From UHGV virus genome UHGV-0208881: a stretch of 22,343 nucleotides of DNA, one strand, 5' to 3'. The DNA is from a virus. The notes under the pieces are model-generated. The model saw only the letters and a program-made list of their open reading frames with translations, was not told where the DNA came from and made no database searches. The position numbers were made by a program, and so were the translations under genes. Shown here piece after piece: positions 1 through 18,707 of the stretch (positions are counted from its first letter, which is position 1; each line of letters begins with the position of its first letter).

Positions 1-1
1 T

Positions 2-37
2 AATAAGCAACCTCCTCTGTTAGGAGGTTGCTTATTA
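2..37 (-). terminator. Perfect 16-bp inverted repeat (stem TAATAAGCAACCTCCT, 5-nt loop) about 30 nt downstream of the tailspike stop; probable end-of-late-operon hairpin, with any U-tract lying beyond the window edge
   Basis: Read directly: bases 1-16 are the exact reverse complement of bases 22-37. No T-run follows on the plus strand; the minus-strand tail is outside the window. Confidence 0.4.
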
Positions 38-68
38 CAATTAAAGTCTAATAATGCGCTCTAGATAT

Positions 69-2486
69 TTACAATGTAATGTTTTGCGGCATGTCTGTAT
101 TCGCCTTATTTGCTGCTGGGTACTGGCATGTAGCAGTCGAATTTGTTGTCGAGTTATCCCCGAACCACAATTTGTTCTGTGACGCTATCCCTGACACTGC
201 AGATCCAGAGCACTGAATGACGTTAATTGCATCCTTAAACATGTTGTCAGCAATTCTGATATTCTCATACTGTGAAAGCCATGGAGTTGCTCCATCATCT
301 ATCAGCATTGTTGCATTTCCTGCCGTTCCAGGGGTAGATGATGATATATAGTTTCTAGAAAATTCTGCATAACTAGTTCCTGTTGCTTTTGATACCCCCG
401 TTTGTAATTGATCAAACAAAAAACCGCCTATCTGGATGTTGCCTCTTACAATAAGGGACCTTGGTGTATATCCTGCCGGATGGAATTTAACAACTCGAGT
501 GCCACAATTATAGAACTTGTTTTCTATAAAAGAAGCAAGGCAATTTGATGAGCACTTAATCCTGATTAAAGATGGTCCATTTGTGAACTCATTTCCTGTT
601 AATGAAATAAAATTCATTAAACCGACATTAGTGGATGTCATAACATCAATGAATGGCATTAAGGAAAAACCTGAGTAATAAGAAACTTTGTTATCTATTA
701 CTCTTAGCTCTGTTGCTGCCGATCCTGTTGCAAAGTTGATATTTGAAATATTGCAATTAGATATTTTTATTCTATTAAAATTTCCAACAGCGGCAAAACC
801 AACTGATGATGTTGAGTCAGATCTAAGTGTTGCACCATTGAATTCAATGCCACTGTTTGATGATATGTTTGATGAATCTTGAGCAAACATGAATGTTGTT
901 CCAGTAGTGGCAATTACCCCGCCAATTATCTTAAATTCACAATTGCTCATTTGCGCGTAATTGGTCATGAACAATGGTGCTATCATAGTGTTATTATTAA
1001 GTGATATAATAGCAGACTCAATAACAACACCAGGAGTCCCAATTAACATAATGCGATCATAAGCTCTGATGGTGTTACCAGAAGCAACAAGAGATCGCAT
1101 CCACCCTGTATCTATCCAAGGAGTTGTTGATGTACCAGGTACAATATGAATGCCAACACCTTGAGTTTGTATATTATTTCCAGAGACAGTAATCTGCCCC
1201 CAAGGAATATTTCCGTTTGATCCTGGCATATCAAGAACAATTGCGTTATCTAAAACGTCAATATTGTTACCTATAATTGATAAACGTGTAAATCCACAGC
1301 GACCTTTTATACATCCATTGCCTCTGGTATTAACTCTATTCTTCAGTGAGTTTCCAATTACAGCGATATCTTCAACCAAAGCTCCCTCGCCTGTTGCATC
1401 CCATGTGGCTCCAGCGGTGTACACAGCGTGATCATACCATCCATCCATTGAATTGCCTTGGATGCGAATATTGCGCATATTGCCACCGATGCATGATCCA
1501 GGTGAGTCATAGAACACGCAATCAAATATCAGAACGCCACCGAGTGAGTATCGGTGATCAGACCAAGTGACATTAGGCACTTGTGTTTTAACCCCATCAG
1601 GGGTGTTGTCATATGGTTCAGCGTTTGTCGGACATACATCTATATATCGTGTTTGGTCAGGAATAGATGTACCTGAGCCAGAAGCACCAACCTCCATGTT
1701 TCTGGCATTTCCATCAAATCTTAGGCCGTGAATAGAGATGCTTCCAGTTGCTCCTGACGCAACCAGCAAAATATTTGAACGGTCCTGGTTAGGGTCAATA
1801 TCTGTAGTTGAACCTGTTACAAAATGTGACCGCTGACTTCTGACGAGCGTTGCCCCTCCATCACCCCAAATAGATGTGCATCCTGTCCATACGTTTACCT
1901 TTGCATCAAACACATAGTCTCCAGGAGGGAAAAATACACCACAACCTTTTTCTGCTGCCTCATTAACAGCGAGTTGAACAGATGCGTTGACGTATTTAGT
2001 TCTATCTCTTGCAAATACTGATGCCATTTCATCATCAGTCATATATTTTGTAGCCAGAATACTTGGTGTCTTCTCTACATATTCATCAAGTGTTCCATAT
2101 CGGGTGTTTACAAGAGAACCATTGCCATTAGCTAATTCAAGGCGCAACTGGTCAGGATCGTATTTCAGTACATTAGGATAATAGAACTGCTGTGCCCCGT
2201 ACGCATCATAAACAGCCATAGAATGGCCTTGCACAGTTACGAACTTGGCAATCTGCCCGTTATATACAGGATATCCTGCAGCGTTAATGATGATTGGTTG
2301 CGAAACAGGAACGTGAGAACCATCTTCGTTCTCTATATAAACCTGAATCTGGTTTTCAGGATTTACCGGGTCAGTGTCAATTTTACCGATATAAATTTTT
2401 CCATTGGCTACGGCTTTAAAAGAACGCGCCATAGTGAAGAGTTGCGAAGGCATACTCACTACAACATTGGCTGTAATGTCTGTCAT
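69..2486 (-). CDS. Tailspike protein: P22 gp9-like head-binding N-terminal domain (about 115 aa) fused to a different right-handed beta-helix (pectate-lyase-like) receptor-binding/glycanase domain
   Basis: 805-aa ORF. N-terminus [11 protein letters not shown]...VLKYDPDQ matches remembered P22 tailspike head-binding domain; remainder is rich in GN/IxGN repeats typical of beta-helix tailspikes and does not resemble the P22 endorhamnosidase body. Last gene of the operon. SD GGAG upstream of ATG. Confidence 0.85.
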
Positions 2487-2650: not shown

Positions 2651-5044
2651 CTATTCTGACAACGCATCAGACTTAGCGCCTTGGGTCAGCGCGTTAATGG
2701 CCTTTTGCGCCTGCTGCATGGCTTTCTCAAACGCTGTTGATCCGCGTGGGGTGTTTGCCATTCGGAGCATTGCATTTCTGAATGGCTCGCTCTCATAGGC
2801 GCGAGTAAGAAGTCCGTAGCTTACTGCTGCGCCAGTTGTTGCAGGGTTCATTGCCGTCCCATACCCGATAATGAACGGGATGGTTTGCTGGCCTGTGGGT
2901 GTTGTTACAGCCGCTTTTGCAGCCTGCTGCGTGGATTGAAGGTAGTTTTTCAATCCTTTCAGATAAGCGGCTTCCTGACCTTTAAATGTGATTCCAGTCT
3001 GGTTTTGCAGGATGTTAAGCTGTCGAAGGAACTGGTCAGGGGATCCGCCAGATTTCTCCATCGCCTTTCCAATGATGCCATTGCGCATTTGCGCCCTGCC
3101 AACACGACCAACTGAGTTATACAGAGTCTTAATTTCCGATTTGTTCTTGCTGAATAGCATGTTGTTGACAACTTCCGGCGTCAGGTCGCCTTTCATGAGA
3201 ACATTCTTCAGCCTGGTATTCTTTAGTTTCTCCGCTTCGTCAGCGTAGACGGCATTGGCCTGCTGATATTTACGGAGAGTATCGTTGCCAAGATTCTGAC
3301 CAATGGCACCATTGATATCTTCGGTCATCGCCTTGTAAACTCGCTGAATGGCGGCATCGGAACGGTTTGGTAACACTGGTCGCTCCCCCTTCACGTCCAT
3401 TCTGAACTGGCTGCGCAGGTCGCTTAATTGCTTCAAATCCAGATTTACCGGACCATCAGGGCCAGCATTGCGAACAAGCTCATCACGATAGGACTGAAGT
3501 TTTGAAATAGTCTCGCTATCAGCAACCTTACCAAGCTTCTGCAGGTTAGATATTTCTGTATCAATCTGCTGAATTGCTCGCGCAGGCTGAATGTTTACTC
3601 CAGCCATAGCATTCTGAACCTGCTCCAGTCGATTACCGGCTGCACGACGAATTCCTGATGTTTTCGCTTTAAGGCTGTCAATAACAACCGCTGGGTCATA
3701 CTCACCGAATTTATCAGCAAATCTCTGCACCAACTGGCTTCTCGCTTCCTGTTGCGTTGCTCTCATTCCGCTTGTGCCAGCCAGAGGGATATTTTCTGCT
3801 GTAGTCTGCGCCATTTTTCCGACGCGGGAAGTTGGTTGTAACAGGTCTGTGGTGTGAAGAGGAACTCCTTCACGCTCTGCAAATCTGATAGCCTGCTGCG
3901 CTTCTGGCGAGATAGCGCCACGAACGCCACGATAAGCAGCACCTAATCCACGTCCGGCAGCGTTAATAGCACCGCCAGCAAGTACACCAACGCCTAAATC
4001 GGTGGCGAGTGCTTCCGCATCATCTTTCGCACTATTTGCAGCAAGTGATCCAACTGCGTTTCCTGCTAGAAGGCGAGTTGCCCCCTGAGCAATTCGACCA
4101 GCAAGTGTTGGTGCCTGTGTTGCCGCTCTCTCAACGCCAGCAGGAGTGAGGTAAGGCAATGCTTCGGCAAATACCCTTCCCTCTGTCGTTTGTGGAGTCA
4201 GCGCGCCTTGCTGAAGGCCAAAGTCCTGCTCTAATCCCTGCGTTGTTACTCGTGGTGCTGGTTGATATGTACCATCGCCAATGCCGAGTTTACCGCCAGC
4301 CCAAGCCGCCGCGCTTGTTACAGCATCAGTGAGTTCAGCAGGTATGTTCGCTACGTTGATTCCTGCCTGTAGTAAGCCGCGCCCGGTTTCAGCAAGTCCA
4401 TTACCAAGGTCAGACATTATTCCGCCTTGCTGCTGAACAGGTTTCGGTGCGACAGAACTTACGGGTTGAGGTGGCTGCTGACTGGCTGCCTGCTGCTCAA
4501 TCTGAGCAAATGGATTATTTGGGTCTGACTGCACGCCTGATGCCGATACTTGTTCGGATGACTGTGCTTCCAGTTGTGCAAACGGGTTGTTAGGGTCTTG
4601 CTGAGGATGTACCTTTGCAGAGGTGGCGCGCTGTTCGACTGTTGAGTCTGTCACCGGGTCACCCGCCCATTGAGCAAAGCGATCATCAACGTAACCGCGG
4701 CCTTCAGGTCCTGGCGTATATTCACCACGCTTTGCCTTCATAACGTTGCCGGGACCGTCGTGATAAGCCTGAAGAGCGTCACGCCAGTTACCAAACTGCT
4801 GGTACATCTTTGCCAGATAGCGCGCGCCAGCGTCAGCCTGATATTCGGGGTTTTGCATTTGCTCATCGGTATAACCCATATCACGCCATGTCCCAGGCAT
4901 GACCTGAGTCAATCCTACAGCCCCGGCGGAGCTTACTGCGGCAGGGTTGTAAGAAGACTCCTTGGCACCCAGTGCAGTCATCAACCCTTCTGGCACACCG
5001 TAACGTGCGCCAGCCTGCTCTAACAAATCACGGTAATTAGCCAT
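2651..5044 (-). CDS. Ejection (injection) protein, P22 gp16 position, with N-terminal soluble lytic transglycosylase (SLT) domain
   Basis: 797-aa ORF immediately after the gp20-like gene. N-terminal motif AKESSYNPAAVSSAGAVGLTQVMPGTW fits the SLT family catalytic region (ES...GAxGLxQxMP). Followed by a Q/P/A-rich linker with a tandem repeat and a long C-terminal domain. Position matches the third ejection protein of P22-like phages. Confidence 0.8.
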   Translation of the reverse strand: MANYRDLLEQAGARYGVPEGLMTALGAKESSYNPAAVSSAGAVGLTQVMPGTWRDMGYTDEQMQNPEYQADAGARYLAKMYQQFGNWRDALQAYHDGPGNVMKAKRGEYTPGPEGRGYVDDRFAQWAGDPVTDSTVEQRATSAKVHPQQDPNNPFAQLEAQSSEQVSASGVQSDPNNPFAQIEQQAASQQPPQPVSSVAPKPVQQQGGIMSDLGNGLAETGRGLLQAGINVANIPAELTDAVTSAAAWAGGKLGIGDGTYQPAPRVTTQGLEQDFGLQQGALTPQTTEGRVFAEALPYLTPAGVERAATQAPTLAGRIAQGATRLLAGNAVGSLAANSAKDDAEALATDLGVGVLAGGAINAAGRGLGAAYRGVRGAISPEAQQAIRFAEREGVPLHTTDLLQPTSRVGKMAQTTAENIPLAGTSGMRATQQEARSQLVQRFADKFGEYDPAVVIDSLKAKTSGIRRAAGNRLEQVQNAMAGVNIQPARAIQQIDTEISNLQKLGKVADSETISKLQSYRDELVRNAGPDGPVNLDLKQLSDLRSQFRMDVKGERPVLPNRSDAAIQRVYKAMTEDINGAIGQNLGNDTLRKYQQANAVYADEAEKLKNTRLKNVLMKGDLTPEVVNNMLFSKNKSEIKTLYNSVGRVGRAQMRNGIIGKAMEKSGGSPDQFLRQLNILQNQTGITFKGQEAAYLKGLKNYLQSTQQAAKAAVTTPTGQQTIPFIIGYGTAMNPATTGAAVSYGLLTRAYESEPFRNAMLRMANTPRGSTAFEKAMQQAQKAINALTQGAKSDALSE
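4491..4612 (-). repeat. In-frame tandem repeat (two copies of about 75 bp / 25 aa, DPNNPFAQ(L/I)E.Q...) in the linker of the SLT-ejection protein
   Basis: Protein shows QDPNNPFAQLEAQSSEQVSASGVQS followed by DPNNPFAQIEQQAASQQPPQPVSS; the matching DNA repeats are visible on the plus strand near 4491-4526 and 4566-4602. Confidence 0.5.
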
Positions 5045-12611: not shown

Positions 12612-14777
12612 TTATTGAGGTGTCTCGGCTACTCCGCCGGAGGGTATTTGAACTTGACGCATAAGATTCGCGAAATCCATGCGTTGTGAATGAGTCTGGT
12701 CTGCATCTTTAAGAAGCAGCTCAGCGTTAGCACGAGCATCTTTGCTGCGCTGTTGCTGGAATTGACCTACGAGCTTGAGGTACTCACGCAGTTCTGCCTG
12801 CTTGTCGAGGTCCATATTGTTGAAGATTTCCGCAATCTTCGCGGCGTTGAGTTGGTTTTGTGCTTCAACCTTGGCAGCTTCAACCTGAATCTGCGCCTGT
12901 TGGTTCTCTGCCTTGAGCAATTCAGCCTGACCTTGCAGAAGGATACCCTGCGCCTGAATTTGCTCTGCTGATGGCTGCTGCGGCTGCTGTTGCGCCTGCT
13001 GCACCATCTCCATCTCTTCAGGTGTTTCTGGTTTCTTCAGCCCCATCATCACCAGTTGCTTGTTCGCGTACTCTCGCATCATCTCGACGCCTTTACCGTC
13101 AAGCAGCGTGAAGTATTGCAGCATCAGCATCTGGAACTCTGGAGTACCTTGCGGAACCTTGGTGAGCAACTCCTGAATCTCTGCGCGGTTCTGTTCCTTC
13201 ATACTCTGGAAGGATGGCCCAACGTCCGTATAGCACTCATAGCGACCGCGAATGTCGTTGAGTGTGACCACATTGCCGGACTGGTAATCGACAACTTGCG
13301 CGTAGAGTTGAACGTCTTTCTCGCTTCCATCTTCGAGTGTCAGCGTTACATGACGAGGAACGTCATAAATATCGTTGACCATTGAGGCATAAATCTCGCC
13401 ATCACGTCGCATTGCGGTAGCCAGGTTATCCTGAAACACGTATGTCTCAAGGTCTGCCCGCATGTTCAGTTGATTGACGGTATCGAAAGCGACCTGACCA
13501 TTTGCCGCCTGCGCATCCACGCCAAGACTAGCCACCTCTTTCACTGCGTTGGTGGCAGCCTCAAGCATGTAAGCGTTGGCTTGCGGCACTTCAGGGTTTT
13601 CCATGTAGGAGATTGGACCAATCGGCAGGTCGTTACCGTTTTCATCGGTCCTGTTCTGCAGATAGTACGGATAGTCATCATTTCCACCGTACATGTATTC
13701 GTAGCCTTCGATTTGCTCAGGGAAGAAGGTCGGTTTCTTCTTCGGTGAACGAGCAACAATATCGGCGTTGAACGACATGATCATGTTACGAAGGCGTTGA
13801 CCGTCTTTCGTCAGCCTTACCACGCCCTCGTAGCACTCCTTGTCACCAGCGAATGACCATTCGCCGTACACAGGAACGATTGGGATATGCTCTCCAGCTA
13901 TCTTCTCGCGGTCTTTCAGTATCTGCGTGCAGGTGATGATCGACTTATACACACGCCGACGCTTGACCTTACGCTCTGCTACCTTAATGAATCCACGATT
14001 AGCCAGGTCGTCGATGACGTCTTTGATATCCTGCTGGTAATAGCTGACCGGCTCACCTGTCAGCGGGTCGCGGTAGATGAAGACCTTCTCTTTCTTCTCT
14101 TCGACCTCGTAATACTCAGCGACGTAGACGACATCATTCGATACCCACGGAAACAGCCATGTATCGTTCGGATTCTGGAAAGATGGCAAGGTGTCCGGAT
14201 CAATACCGTAATCCTCTGCGAACTCTTTCCAGCCATTGCGCGACAAGGCGTTAATCACCGTGCAGTGCTTAGCGTCGCTCTTATCCATCTGCTTGCTGTT
14301 GGCGTCCCATATGACGTGTGAGCAGGCTTCATGAATTGGCAGGCGTCTGATTACCTGATTGTTGCTTGTTGGGTCGTTGTCTTCGTACTGTGTGACCAGA
14401 CGCCATGCACCAACGCCGGACTCTATCTGCTCACGAACGCCAACGTTAACGGCAATCTTTGCCGTGTTATGGCGCATATCAGTACGATACATCCCCATCA
14501 ACACATCGGCTGCATCAGGATTAGCGCCGTCTTTGGGTCGGAAGAGAACGTCGATAGGGTTCCGGCGCATCTCTGCGACCAGTTTCCTGACCACCGGGCG
14601 AACAACATCGAATTGTCCGCGATATTGCAGGGTGGTGTAGTTTGATAGCCAGTCATCCCATTGCGACACTCGGCTAAAATACAGGTCATTTGTCGCCTCG
14701 GTTCTGGCTTCATCGCTCGCCATCCAGTCTGCGTCAAACTTACACAGAATGGAATTGAGTCTGTTTTCGTCGGCCAT
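12612..14777 (-). CDS. Portal protein, P22 gp1-like
   Basis: 721-aa ORF (P22 portal about 725 aa). Conserved blocks [40 protein letters not shown] and the long C-terminal coiled-coil barrel region. Start ATG is directly adjacent to the terminase stop. Confidence 0.9.
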
Positions 14778-16277
14778 TTAAGTTCTCCGTGCGATGGGCC
14801 TGATTGGGGCTGGTATCTTTTTCTCTTTTGGTTTTTTGATGTCACGCATCATTTTTGCGAAGCGGCGCATCATGTATGCATAGCGAACGGCTGAGAGAAC
14901 GTCGTCGTTAAGCTTGACGATTTTCCCGTTTTCATCACGGTGATAGAGGCGGAACTCCTCAAAGAATGGCTCACAGGTGTTGAATACTTTGAAGCGACCA
15001 TCAAGCATCATGTCGCGCAATTCAGTGATGCCTGGCTCAACAGCGTTACCGCCATCAGGCCATGTCGCATGCTCCTGCAACATCATAAAACCAGCGTCTG
15101 CATACTGCCCTTTGAGCTGCTCACCGCCGCCCTTCTCATGCTGGTTTCCGTCATGAGGCCATGCGGTTGGCACTTTATGCGCCCATGATTTAACAGCTCC
15201 CCACGCCTGAACGGCTGTCTTTTCTTTCGCCTTCCACACGCGTGAAACGTAGATTGTGTCTGCGTCCTTATCCCACCAAAGCTGAACCTGCGCCTGAGGG
15301 TGATCCCATCCGAAATCCATCCCGCCAATTACGTAGAAGTGATCAGGGCACTCAAACGGCTGACACTTAATCGTCTCTTCCGGTATCTGGAAGATTCGAC
15401 CGCTACCCATCGTAGGAATACCGCGAGCACGCGCCTCTCTCTCATGCTCGGGATAGGATGCGATGATTTGCTCTTTCTGCTCGTCGGTGTAGTGCTCAGC
15501 GTCATAGATGGTCATGTTGACCACTTTCTGCGACTTGCTGGGATTCTTCAGGAACTTGGTAACAACGTCAGACATCCCCATCAGCGGGGTAAACGTCAGA
15601 ATTGAGAATTGCCCGTATTTGTTGGTACGGGTAAGCCCTTCGCCATAAATGCTGTATGGTGGTTCTTCGTCAAACCACACGCCATGGATTGTGTCACCCT
15701 GCCAGCGAGCGCGGCCTTGCGAGTATGGCTTGAAGTAGCAGATTGAAATGCCATCTTCAACGCCATCAGCCGTGTGATGCTTAACCAGAAGATGATCAAC
15801 AAGGTTCGGAAAGAAAGGAGACTTCTTCCAGCTAATGATGTCTTCTTTCGGTATGGAACCGTAGCCAGGCTCATCATTCTCTTCAATACGACCGCACAGG
15901 ATGCGTTGAGTCGTTTTGGTTACCGTCTCGTTTGTCTCGCCACCAATCCAGAAGACAACAGGCTCATAGAAACGCTTACCTTTCCACTCCCCGCCATATT
16001 TACCATCAGCAGGATAGCCTTTTGTGCCCGGATAACGCCCGGTAAGGTGAAACGCGACTTCAGCAGCACCAGTAAATGACTTGCCAAGCTGGTTACCAGC
16101 CATAAAACATCGCTCTGGATAGTCATGCCCGGCGTCGATGAACTCACGCTGTTTGCTGTATGGCGTAAATTCATATAGCAGGTGTGTGTTCCGGTAGTTC
16201 TCTTCTTCTTCGAGTAGTTCGAGCAATTCGATTTGCTCTTCGTCGCTCAGGTTATCAAGAATCGCGTCCAGTTCCAC
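14778..16277 (-). CDS. Terminase large subunit, P22 gp2-like (headful packaging ATPase/nuclease)
   Basis: 499-aa ORF (same length as P22 gp2). N-terminus [37 protein letters not shown] matches remembered gp2; Walker A-like GNQLGKS. Confidence 0.9.
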
Positions 16278-16749
16278 GGTTGAATAGCTCCTTGATACGA
16301 GAGCGCCGTTTATCGCGATCTCCCTTATCAGGTGTCACGTCTTCAACTTGCGACTGCTCTTTGAGGCCCAAATCACGGGCGATGATGTTAGCGTTGAGAA
16401 GGTCAGCGGCTGCGCCAGAGAATTTCTGGTCGTAGATGACCTGTTCTGCTCGCGTAACGACTTCAGATAAATCTTCTCGCAGGCGATATGTGCGCCATGT
16501 TTCAAGTGTCACATCAATGAACAGAGTGAGGCCTGTAATAGTCATCGCTCGCATCTTGGCGATAGGCTCTTGTATCACTTCACCCTGATACGAGAACGCC
16601 TTCATCTCCCATAGCGGGTTAGCTTCTACCCACTCGAAGTATTCACAACAAGCAGCCCACAGCGCCTCAGGCGATTCGAATTTAGGATTTCGCCCATGAC
16701 TACTGCGGGCCTCCCAAAATCGGTTGCCCTTTGGTGCTGCCATATTCAT
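16255..16749 (-). CDS. Terminase small subunit, P22 gp3-like; true start possibly at the third codon (16743), giving 162 aa
   Basis: ORF begins [24 protein letters not shown]; remembered P22 gp3 begins [10 protein letters not shown] and is 162 aa. 3' end overlaps the large-terminase start by 23 nt. Contains the pac sequence. Confidence 0.85.
16449..16476 (-). other. pac site (headful packaging recognition sequence) inside the small-terminase gene
   Basis: Minus strand reads GAAGATTTATCTGAAGTCGTTACGCGAG, matching the P22 pac sequence as I remember it, in the codons for EDLSEVVTR. Consistent with P22-type terminase and absence of lambda cos/Nu1/A. Confidence 0.6.
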
Positions 16750-16766
16750 CTCACTTAATCGTTATT

Positions 16767-16946
16767 TCAGGTTAAGGACTCTTTCGCGCCTTCAATCAGT
16801 TGCTGCTTCAGCAATTCGAGTGTGCCAATCGCCTCGCATAAACTGATTTCACCATCGTAATCATGGATGACGCTTTCCAGCCTCTCGTATAGCTCTTGAG
16901 TAATTGGGAATTTCTTCTCCTTACCCAAATTGATTACGCGGCTCAC
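16767..16946 (-). CDS. Possible small ORF (59 aa, GTG start) between the 80-aa ORF and the small-terminase gene; not in the ORF track
   Basis: Hand translation of the minus strand: GTG at 16946 preceded by GGAG about 6 nt upstream, 1 nt after the TGA of the upstream ORF; product VSRVINLGKEKKFPITQELYERLESVIHDYDGEISLCEAIGTLELLKQQLIEGAKESLT, stop TGA at 16767-16769. Fills an otherwise empty 198-bp gap. Confidence 0.3.
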   Translation of the reverse strand: MSRVINLGKEKKFPITQELYERLESVIHDYDGEISLCEAIGTLELLKQQLIEGAKESLT

Positions 16947-16947
16947 A

Positions 16948-17190
16948 TCATGCTCCGGTGGTGAACAGGTCTAACGCTTCCTTCGATTTACGCACCGCTT
17001 CAAATGTGCGGATCGTGATATCTGAATTAGCGCCACCTGACTGGAAGTGAATTTTGAATAGCTCAAGCTTCAGTTCGTCAGTGCCAATGAACTGAAATGC
17101 TTCCTCTGCGGCTGCGTTCTGGTTCATGACCAGCTTGTAAATCTCTAACTGGAATTTCTGTTCTTCAGTCATGGGAATAATCTCTGCCAT
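16948..17190 (-). CDS. Hypothetical small protein (80 aa), function unknown
   Basis: ORF with GGAGCC SD about 6 nt upstream of ATG; acidic, helical-looking sequence; co-oriented with the late operon. Confidence 0.55.
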   Translation of the reverse strand: MAEIIPMTEEQKFQLEIYKLVMNQNAAAEEAFQFIGTDELKLELFKIHFQSGGANSDITIRTFEAVRKSKEALDLFTTGA

Positions 17191-17523: not shown

Positions 17524-18066
17524 TTAATTAGTGAGTCCGGGGATTATGGTTTGCCCGTGCTGTTCAAGGCGTTCAATTCTCGCCAGTAGCTGAGGCTTCT
17601 TAATTTTTCCCCAGCGATTAAGCAGTCGACCTGACATGCTGGCAACATCCTTCTCTTTCATGTACTCCAGCATTACGGCATTTCTCTCTTCTTCAAATTG
17701 ACGATGACCAACCTGAAGCATGGCGTACATCCAGTTAAATGCGTTGATGTAAGCAATTTTGATACGCATTGCTTCTTTTTTGGTGTAGGACATAACCAAA
17801 AGCATCAACCCATCCTTGCGGAGACGGTAGAATTTTTGCGGCTTACCATTCTGTAACTCATTGTTTTTATAGCAAAGCTCAAAGTTGAGCTTTGTATCAA
17901 ACTCAGGAGGGCAAGCTTCTATGGTTCGTTCAATGTCACGAACTACGTTCTTCGGCAGCTTTCCAAATGCTTTTGCCACCATAAAAGAATCTGTAACCGG
18001 ATCGTTGTTTGCCACAAAAATCAGATCTCGGAAATCAATGCCGTTAACGATAGTTGGATAATGCAT
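17524..18066 (-). CDS. rha: Rha-family phage regulatory protein (antirepressor-like)
   Basis: 180-aa ORF. Motifs VTDSFMVAKAFGK...NVVRDIE and KDGLMLLVMSYTKKEAMRIKIAYINAFNWM fit the phage pRha domain consensus as I remember it. Sits between Rz and terminase, as P22 Rha does. Confidence 0.8.
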   Translation of the reverse strand: MHYPTIVNGIDFRDLIFVANNDPVTDSFMVAKAFGKLPKNVVRDIERTIEACPPEFDTKLNFELCYKNNELQNGKPQKFYRLRKDGLMLLVMSYTKKEAMRIKIAYINAFNWMYAMLQVGHRQFEEERNAVMLEYMKEKDVASMSGRLLNRWGKIKKPQLLARIERLEQHGQTIIPGLTN

Positions 18067-18269: not shown

Positions 18270-18707
18270 TTATTTCAGGCACTGAGTCCTGATGTACTCC
18301 TGTAGGTAGTTAACCTGCGCGGTTATCCTGTCGATTCCACTTCGGAGACGGTAATAATTGAGTTCAGCATCTGCTGTAAGTCTTGGGCTTTCTCCATCGC
18401 CCATGCCGCTGGCTCCGGTCGTTGACTTTGCACAGGTGGCGGCGACTTGCAGGCGCTTACGCCCAGCAGAAACATCAGCACGGAGACTTTCGATAGTCGC
18501 GTTAGCATCAGCAAGCTCCTTTGTGTATCTGGCGTCGAGTTCTGCTACGTCACGTTGACGCTCCTGCATGTCAGCGATTATGGATGTGGCTTTATCGCGC
18601 TGCTCTTTGTAGGTCATGGCGTTATCACGGTAATGATTAACAGCCCATGACAGACAGACGATGATGCAGATAACCAGAGCGGAGATAATCGCGGTTACTC
18701 TGCTCAT
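18270..18707 (-). CDS. Rz: Rz-type inner-membrane spanin (i-spanin), 145 aa
   Basis: N-terminus [30 protein letters not shown] (TM segment) as in lambda Rz / P22 gp15; start overlaps the R stop (ATGA). Beyond about residue 35 it differs from lambda Rz as I remember it, and the 145-aa length equals P22 gp15. Confidence 0.85.
18323..18514 (-). CDS. Rz1: Rz1-type outer-membrane lipoprotein spanin (o-spanin), embedded in the +1 frame of Rz
   Basis: 63-aa ORF wholly inside Rz in a different frame; signal peptide [22 protein letters not shown] with lipobox ending in Cys, then a Pro-rich mature region ([13 protein letters not shown]). Confidence 0.75.

Follow-up and report, generated by a model that had tools for sequence, protein, structure and literature searches.

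A putative packaging-initiation (pac) site, identical to that of Salmonella phage P22, in the small-terminase gene of a P22-like phage of Escherichia coli

A 22-bp sequence in the small-terminase gene of the virus genome UHGV-0208881, analysed as one stretch of 22,343 nucleotides (hereafter the window), matches the pac site of Salmonella phage P22 base for base and very probably serves as the packaging-initiation site of a P22-like temperate phage of Escherichia coli. The exact identity of the site, its position, the protein that recognises it, the gp3-binding end of the large terminase and an intact virion module were all established directly. The site and the genes around it are located on the minus strand:

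16455 to 16476, minus strand: the pac site proper, GAAGATTTATCTGAAGTCGTTA (22 bp, read 5' to 3' from 16476 to 16455), exact and unique in the window
16449 to 16454, minus strand: CGCGAG, the 3' six bases of the 28-mer described below, forming the next two codons of gene 3 and lying outside the 22-bp pac
16406 to 16525, minus strand: putative series-initiation cutting zone of about 120 bp, centred on pac, placed by homology with P22 and with nominal boundaries
16255 to 16743, minus strand: gene 3, small terminase (TerS, gp3), 162 aa from the ATG of the P22 annotation, in a frame open to 16749
14778 to 16277, minus strand: gene 2, large terminase (TerL, ATPase and nuclease), 499 aa, with Terminase_6N and Terminase_6C (Pfam), overlapping the end of gene 3
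12612 to 14777, minus strand: gene 1, portal protein (Pfam P22_portal, E=5.9e-162, full length)

The first-pass annotation had proposed a P22-type pac site in the form of a 28-mer, GAAGATTTATCTGAAGTCGTTACGCGAG, within the codons for EDLSEVVTR on the coding strand of a gp3-like gene. An exact search of the whole window returned a single copy of this 28-mer, at 16449-16476 on the minus strand, inside the open reading frame 16255..16749 and with the in-frame reading E-D-L-S-E-V-V-T-R; the position, the codons and the strand had therefore been given exactly, the coding strand being the minus strand of the window. No second copy was found in the whole window with up to three mismatches, and 0/100 dinucleotide-preserving shuffles of the window matched the 28-mer. 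As a delimitation of pac the 28-mer was partly right, in that its first 22 bases are the published site and its last six (CGCGAG) are flanking coding sequence. The alignment to the published P22 pac site that had been suggested as a check was run at the level of the whole gene, and all 22 of the 22 bases agree. Numbered from the first ATG of the 495-nt frame, the site occupies nucleotides 274-295, or 268-289 from the P22 start (the P22 annotation, AF217253, uses the second ATG of the open reading frame and not the first), and it begins in codon phase 0, near the middle of the gene and on its coding strand, as it does in P22. The published pseudo-pac consensus, derived from functional host sites that P22 uses (PMC10996546), has a single match in the window against an expectation of 0.11; this match lies at 16459-16475 on the minus strand and coincides with the 17-nt core of pac. 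Throughout the pac zone of about 120 bp, the window differs from P22 by a single synonymous change at gene nucleotide 271, three nucleotides upstream of pac, where C stands for A (CGA versus AGA); CGA also directly precedes pac in 59/80 relatives from IMG/VR.

The extent of the P22 pac site has been described in several ways. Two papers (PMC5261728 and PMC11447400) give it as the 22-mer GAAGATTTATCTGAAGTCGTTA, and the core AAGATTTATCTG was defined earlier and extended afterwards (PMC11447400). In the genome of phage L the 22-bp pac lies within gene 3 with its first base at bp 268 (PMC8022706); counted from the annotated start of P22, this position falls on the G that opens GAAG in the gene of the window. 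The native context of pac listed in Table 1 of PMC11260489, ...GAG AAGATTTATCTGAAGTC GTT..., agrees with the window, a location of pac inside gene 3 is also reported in PMC8575938, and the P22 terminase is known to cut in a 120-bp zone around pac (PMC10996546, PMC11260489). A review quotes another 22-mer, AGAGAAGATTTATCTGAAGTCG, from in-vitro work (PMC9611059); its first base is C in the window (CGA and not AGA, arginine in either case), and this base lies outside the 22-bp GAAG...GTTA. We retained the GAAG...GTTA definition because it is quoted explicitly in two papers. A synonymous recoding of the site, the P22 pac-wobble AGGACTTGTCGGAAGTC, has also been described (PMC11260489). The P22 pac and the gene 3/gene 2 terminase go back to Casjens et al. 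1987, Wu et al. 2002 and Leavitt et al. 2013 (cited in PMC10996546, PMC8022706 and PMC11447400).

The gene that contains the site is, like the site itself, of P22 type. Over 495 nt its DNA shares 98.4% identity with P22 gene 3, all eight of the eight differences are synonymous, and the encoded gp3 is 100% identical to P22 gp3 over 164 aa, with matches to the Pfam family GP3_package (E=3.6e-33) and to the solved P22 gp3 structure PDB 3P9A (E=1.4e-108). The proposal of a P22-type pac in a gp3-like gene is thus borne out by 22/22 bases in the same gene, position and codon phase and by a small terminase that is that of P22. The region of the 28-mer, confirmed as observed, appears to be a P22-type headful pac site, a reading supported by sequence identity. 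In P22, packaging specificity has been assigned genetically to gp3 and pac (PMC11260489, PMC9611059). Purified P22 TerS has not been demonstrated to bind pac oligonucleotides specifically in vitro (PMC9611059), and the pac recognition step therefore rests on genetics.

The remainder of the packaging machinery is encoded next to the site. TerL is 93% identical to P22 gp2, with one difference in residues 1-317 and about 80% identity in the C-terminal nuclease domain (residues ~318-499). Residues 1-58 of P22 TerL bind the C-terminus of TerS (PMC9611059), and 57/58 of these residues are identical in the window. The identical TerL is indexed in 11,661 blocks of a public sequence collection, and 6/6 of the places listed are P22-like prophages on contigs of 0.5-5 Mb. 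Downstream of gene 2, full-length genes follow in P22 order: portal, scaffold, coat, gp4, gp10, a gene in the gp26 position, gp14, gp7, gp20 and an ejection protein with an SLT domain; a tailspike with the P22 head-binding domain ends the same module. The P22 portal is both the DNA entry channel and the headful sensor. The machinery predicted to act on pac is, as far as can be read from open frames and full-length family matches of the packaging and virion genes, complete within the window.

Some features of this module were observed in addition. A mosaic joint lies at ~15330 inside gene 2: the DNA of gene 3 and of the part of gene 2 for the ATPase domain (TerL residues 1-317) has 95-100% identity to P22, which falls to 65-83% for the nuclease domain of TerL and everything downstream. 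The protein in the position of P22 gene 16 (2651-5044, minus strand, 797 aa) carries an SLT lytic transglycosylase domain at its N-terminus. The tailspike (69-2486, minus strand, 805 aa) matches known phages in its N-terminal head-binding domain only, and window positions 1-2145, at the tailspike end, were without a match in the phage and E. coli collections. The interval between these two genes is without an immI region (ant/mnt/arc/sieA).

Variation at the site, in the same gene, was followed in 80 IMG/VR relatives, of which 59 carry the exact pac, 11 the substitution A15G and 10 both T6C and A15G. The variants are thus confined to position 6 and/or position 15. The pseudo-pac consensus (PMC10996546) is degenerate at each of them, and the variant sites still fit it. 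Extra synonymous conservation of pac among 62 distinct IMG/VR gene 3 sequences was not significant in a test of low power, as 2/7 third positions vary in pac versus 43% gene-wide, and in the same 62 sequences 25% of the 22-nt windows of the gene are conserved at least as well as pac. A prophage of Erwinia tracheiphila whose gp3 has 76% protein identity keeps 21/22 pac bases (L084, 5777-5798); identical synonymous codons make up 6/7 in pac versus 63/110 (Fisher p=0.14 in this low-power test). A scan for the exact 22-mer in one genome per species gave no match, and a degenerate 22-mer scan of 596 Gb gave one true homologue, that of Erwinia, and one unrelated gene in a Saprospirales MAG; by the matches of these two scans, pac was seen there in only one species besides Salmonella and E. 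coli. The Saprospirales gene (L083, 3431-3452) encodes ...QEDLSEVVNK..., and the count of such matches is about the chance expectation in 596 Gb. What supports the putative pac assignment is identity to the experimentally defined site and to its protein, and not a conservation signal from the present analysis.

The same result, an excess of synonymous conservation of the 22 bp that was not detected in the 62 IMG/VR sequences or against Erwinia, would also fit a site that is present but inert, its sequence being kept merely as gp3 coding sequence in a defective or cryptic prophage. The extent of the window points the same way, since its ~22 kb span the nin region through the tailspike, with the immunity, replication and integration genes outside it. 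We regard this explanation as improbable, because every packaging and virion gene of the window is an open frame of full length that matches its family over the whole length, the identical TerL is widespread in public contigs beside intact modules (P22-like prophages in 6/6 places listed), and the plaque-forming isolates APC_JM3.2 and JEP4 carry gene 3 at 97.5-98.6% identity. Still less probable is headful packaging whose initiation specificity has shifted or differs from that of P22, for instance through the diverged TerL nuclease, such that the P22 pac is not the site used. It could draw on the ~80% identity of TerL residues ~318-499 to P22 and on a sister gp3 allele that is found beside the very same TerL and differs at the pac position, but P22 specificity is set genetically by gp3 and pac, both of which are here those of P22, and the window holds no second pac-like site. 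A chance resemblance to P22 pac was ruled out by the gene-wide identity over 495 nt and the 0/100 shuffles, and lambda-like cos packaging was ruled out by the terminase families (GP3_package; Terminase_6N/6C).

Assignment to the pac of a P22-like phage can be placed more precisely by comparison with the lambda and P22 systems. The P22-type and lambda systems have in common that they act on concatemers and that they are placed, in lambdoid genomes, between lysis and head genes. In contrast to the Nu1-gpA terminase of lambda, TerS belongs to GP3_package and TerL is of the T4-like Terminase_6N/6C type; Nu1/gpA-type proteins were sought among the open reading frames of the window and none was found. 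The cos system, moreover, requires two sites and leaves fixed, cohesive ends (PMC11260489, PMC8575938). The expectation that packaging differs from that of lambda, put forward with the 28-mer, agrees with these terminase families.

With P22 the window shares the 22-bp site, its place and codon phase, gp3, a nearly identical TerL over residues 1-317, and the gene order 3-2-1-8-5-4-10-26-14-7-20. It differs in the DNA from ~15330 to lower coordinates (nuclease domain, portal and beyond), which is 65-83% identical, in the likely host, E. coli and not Salmonella, and in the lysis genes, for which the relative IME10 has lambda S/R-like annotations. The element is thus not P22 itself; from ~15330 to lower coordinates it is instead 93-100% identical to IME10. 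Its best whole-window matches are the E. coli phages IME10 and APC_JM3.2 and E. coli chromosomal prophages; no record in the phage and complete E. coli genome collections covered more than ~75% of the window. Gene 3 is present at 97.5-98.6% identity in the plaque-forming E. coli phage isolates APC_JM3.2 and JEP4, and the P22-type central segment of gene 3, with pac, is present at 95% identity or more in ~146 complete E. coli genome records, where the gene is annotated as 'DNA-packaging protein'. Because ~146 genome records and isolated phages carry this segment, the P22-type pac is common in E. coli phages and already recorded; the feature is a known one and represents no new biology.

The genes between the lysis genes and gene 3 are more variable. 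Immediately upstream of gene 3 is an open reading frame of 59 aa (16767-16946, minus strand) without a Pfam match, whose DNA is 88-97% identical to P22 and which is missing from IME10; a 59-aa gene is found at the equivalent position in some prophages (L088, L089). The interval from the lysis genes to gene 3 forms a variable 'moron' slot, which in the window holds a Rha/ORF11CD3-domain protein (17524-18066, minus strand, 180 aa) and a DUF2560 protein (16948-17190, minus strand, 80 aa), and which in related prophages holds KilA-N, gp49_66, trypsin-like protease or Tad2-like genes instead. Among the lysis genes, an out-of-frame open reading frame with a signal-peptide/lipobox-like start (…LLGVSAC…; 18323-18514, minus strand) is embedded in Rz (18270-18707, minus strand), which is the usual arrangement of an Rz1 spanin within Rz, and the adjacent endolysin is 158 aa long versus 146 aa for P22 gp19, its IME10 copy being annotated as lambda R-like.

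The comparison with IME10, the nearest relative at whole-genome level, also revealed a second allele of the centre of gene 3, which certain prophages carry as well. Identity between window and IME10 is 93-100% in the DUF2560 gene, at either end of gene 3 and in genes 2 and 1, and within 13800-17190 the two differ in two respects only, namely the ~240-nt centre of gene 3 and the 59-aa open reading frame (16767-16946) that IME10 lacks. The centre, at ~16410-16650 on the minus strand and including pac, is 53-82% identical to IME10 15060-15320. At the pac position the IME10-type sequence is GGAAGGTTTTTCTGACGTCACA, encoding EGFSDVT versus EDLSEVV, and the TerL that accompanies it is exactly that of the window. 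This allele is found at 95% identity or more in ~222 complete E. coli genome records, versus ~146 for the P22 type. Its 17-nt core fits the pseudo-pac consensus, as would only 2.8% of random variants of the P22 core with three substitutions. An excess of conservation of the IME10 core relative to P22 gave no signal, 14/17 matches being unexceptional within the diverged segment. As IME10 differs almost only in the ~240-nt centre of gene 3, the comparison points to joint exchange of pac and the middle of TerS as one unit; that P22-like phages exchange TerS horizontally is a published finding (Leavitt et al. 2013, in the account given of it in PMC8022706).

By analogy with P22, we infer that the element is packaged and that it behaves in a P22-like manner. 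Late in infection or after induction, a ring of gp3 (TerS) would recognise the 22-bp asymmetric site on concatemeric phage DNA and recruit gp2 (TerL), and the first cut would be made within ~120 bp of pac. The DNA would then be pumped in one direction through the portal, towards the 3' end of gene 3 and hence along falling window coordinates through genes 2, 1, 8, 5 and onward, as packaging proceeds towards the 3' end of terS (PMC8575938). Once the head is full, a sequence-independent cut would follow and the next head would be filled from the resulting end, as in the headful series packaging of P22 (PMC8022706, PMC8575938, PMC9611059), so that virion DNA would be terminally redundant and partly circularly permuted. 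Generalized transduction from pac-like host sites (PMC10996546, PMC11260489) may be expected, as may lateral transduction if packaging of the prophage precedes its excision (PMC8575938). Headful packaging, circular permutation and transduction potential are thus predictions for the present element, drawn from established P22 biology. Counting against them are the TerL nuclease domain, with only ~80% identity to P22, and the window itself, which is without phage ends or host flanks.

For the annotation of such genomes, a headful-from-pac strategy would mean that defined genome ends are not to be expected, and pac is a sensible zero point for genome numbering. Where lateral transduction takes place, the host DNA carried would be that lying past the tailspike end of the window. 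The ~240-nt centre of gene 3 may, tentatively, act as an exchangeable packaging-specificity cassette in which a P22 or an IME10 allele stands beside the same TerL; that the IME10-type site still fits the pseudo-pac consensus counts against a real difference in specificity between the alleles. P22 packaging specificity circulates in E. coli prophages, and if the alleles do differ in specificity, the phage would carry the packaging specificity of Salmonella P22 into E. coli, and the P22 pseudo-pac consensus would predict where transduction hot spots lie on the E. coli chromosome.
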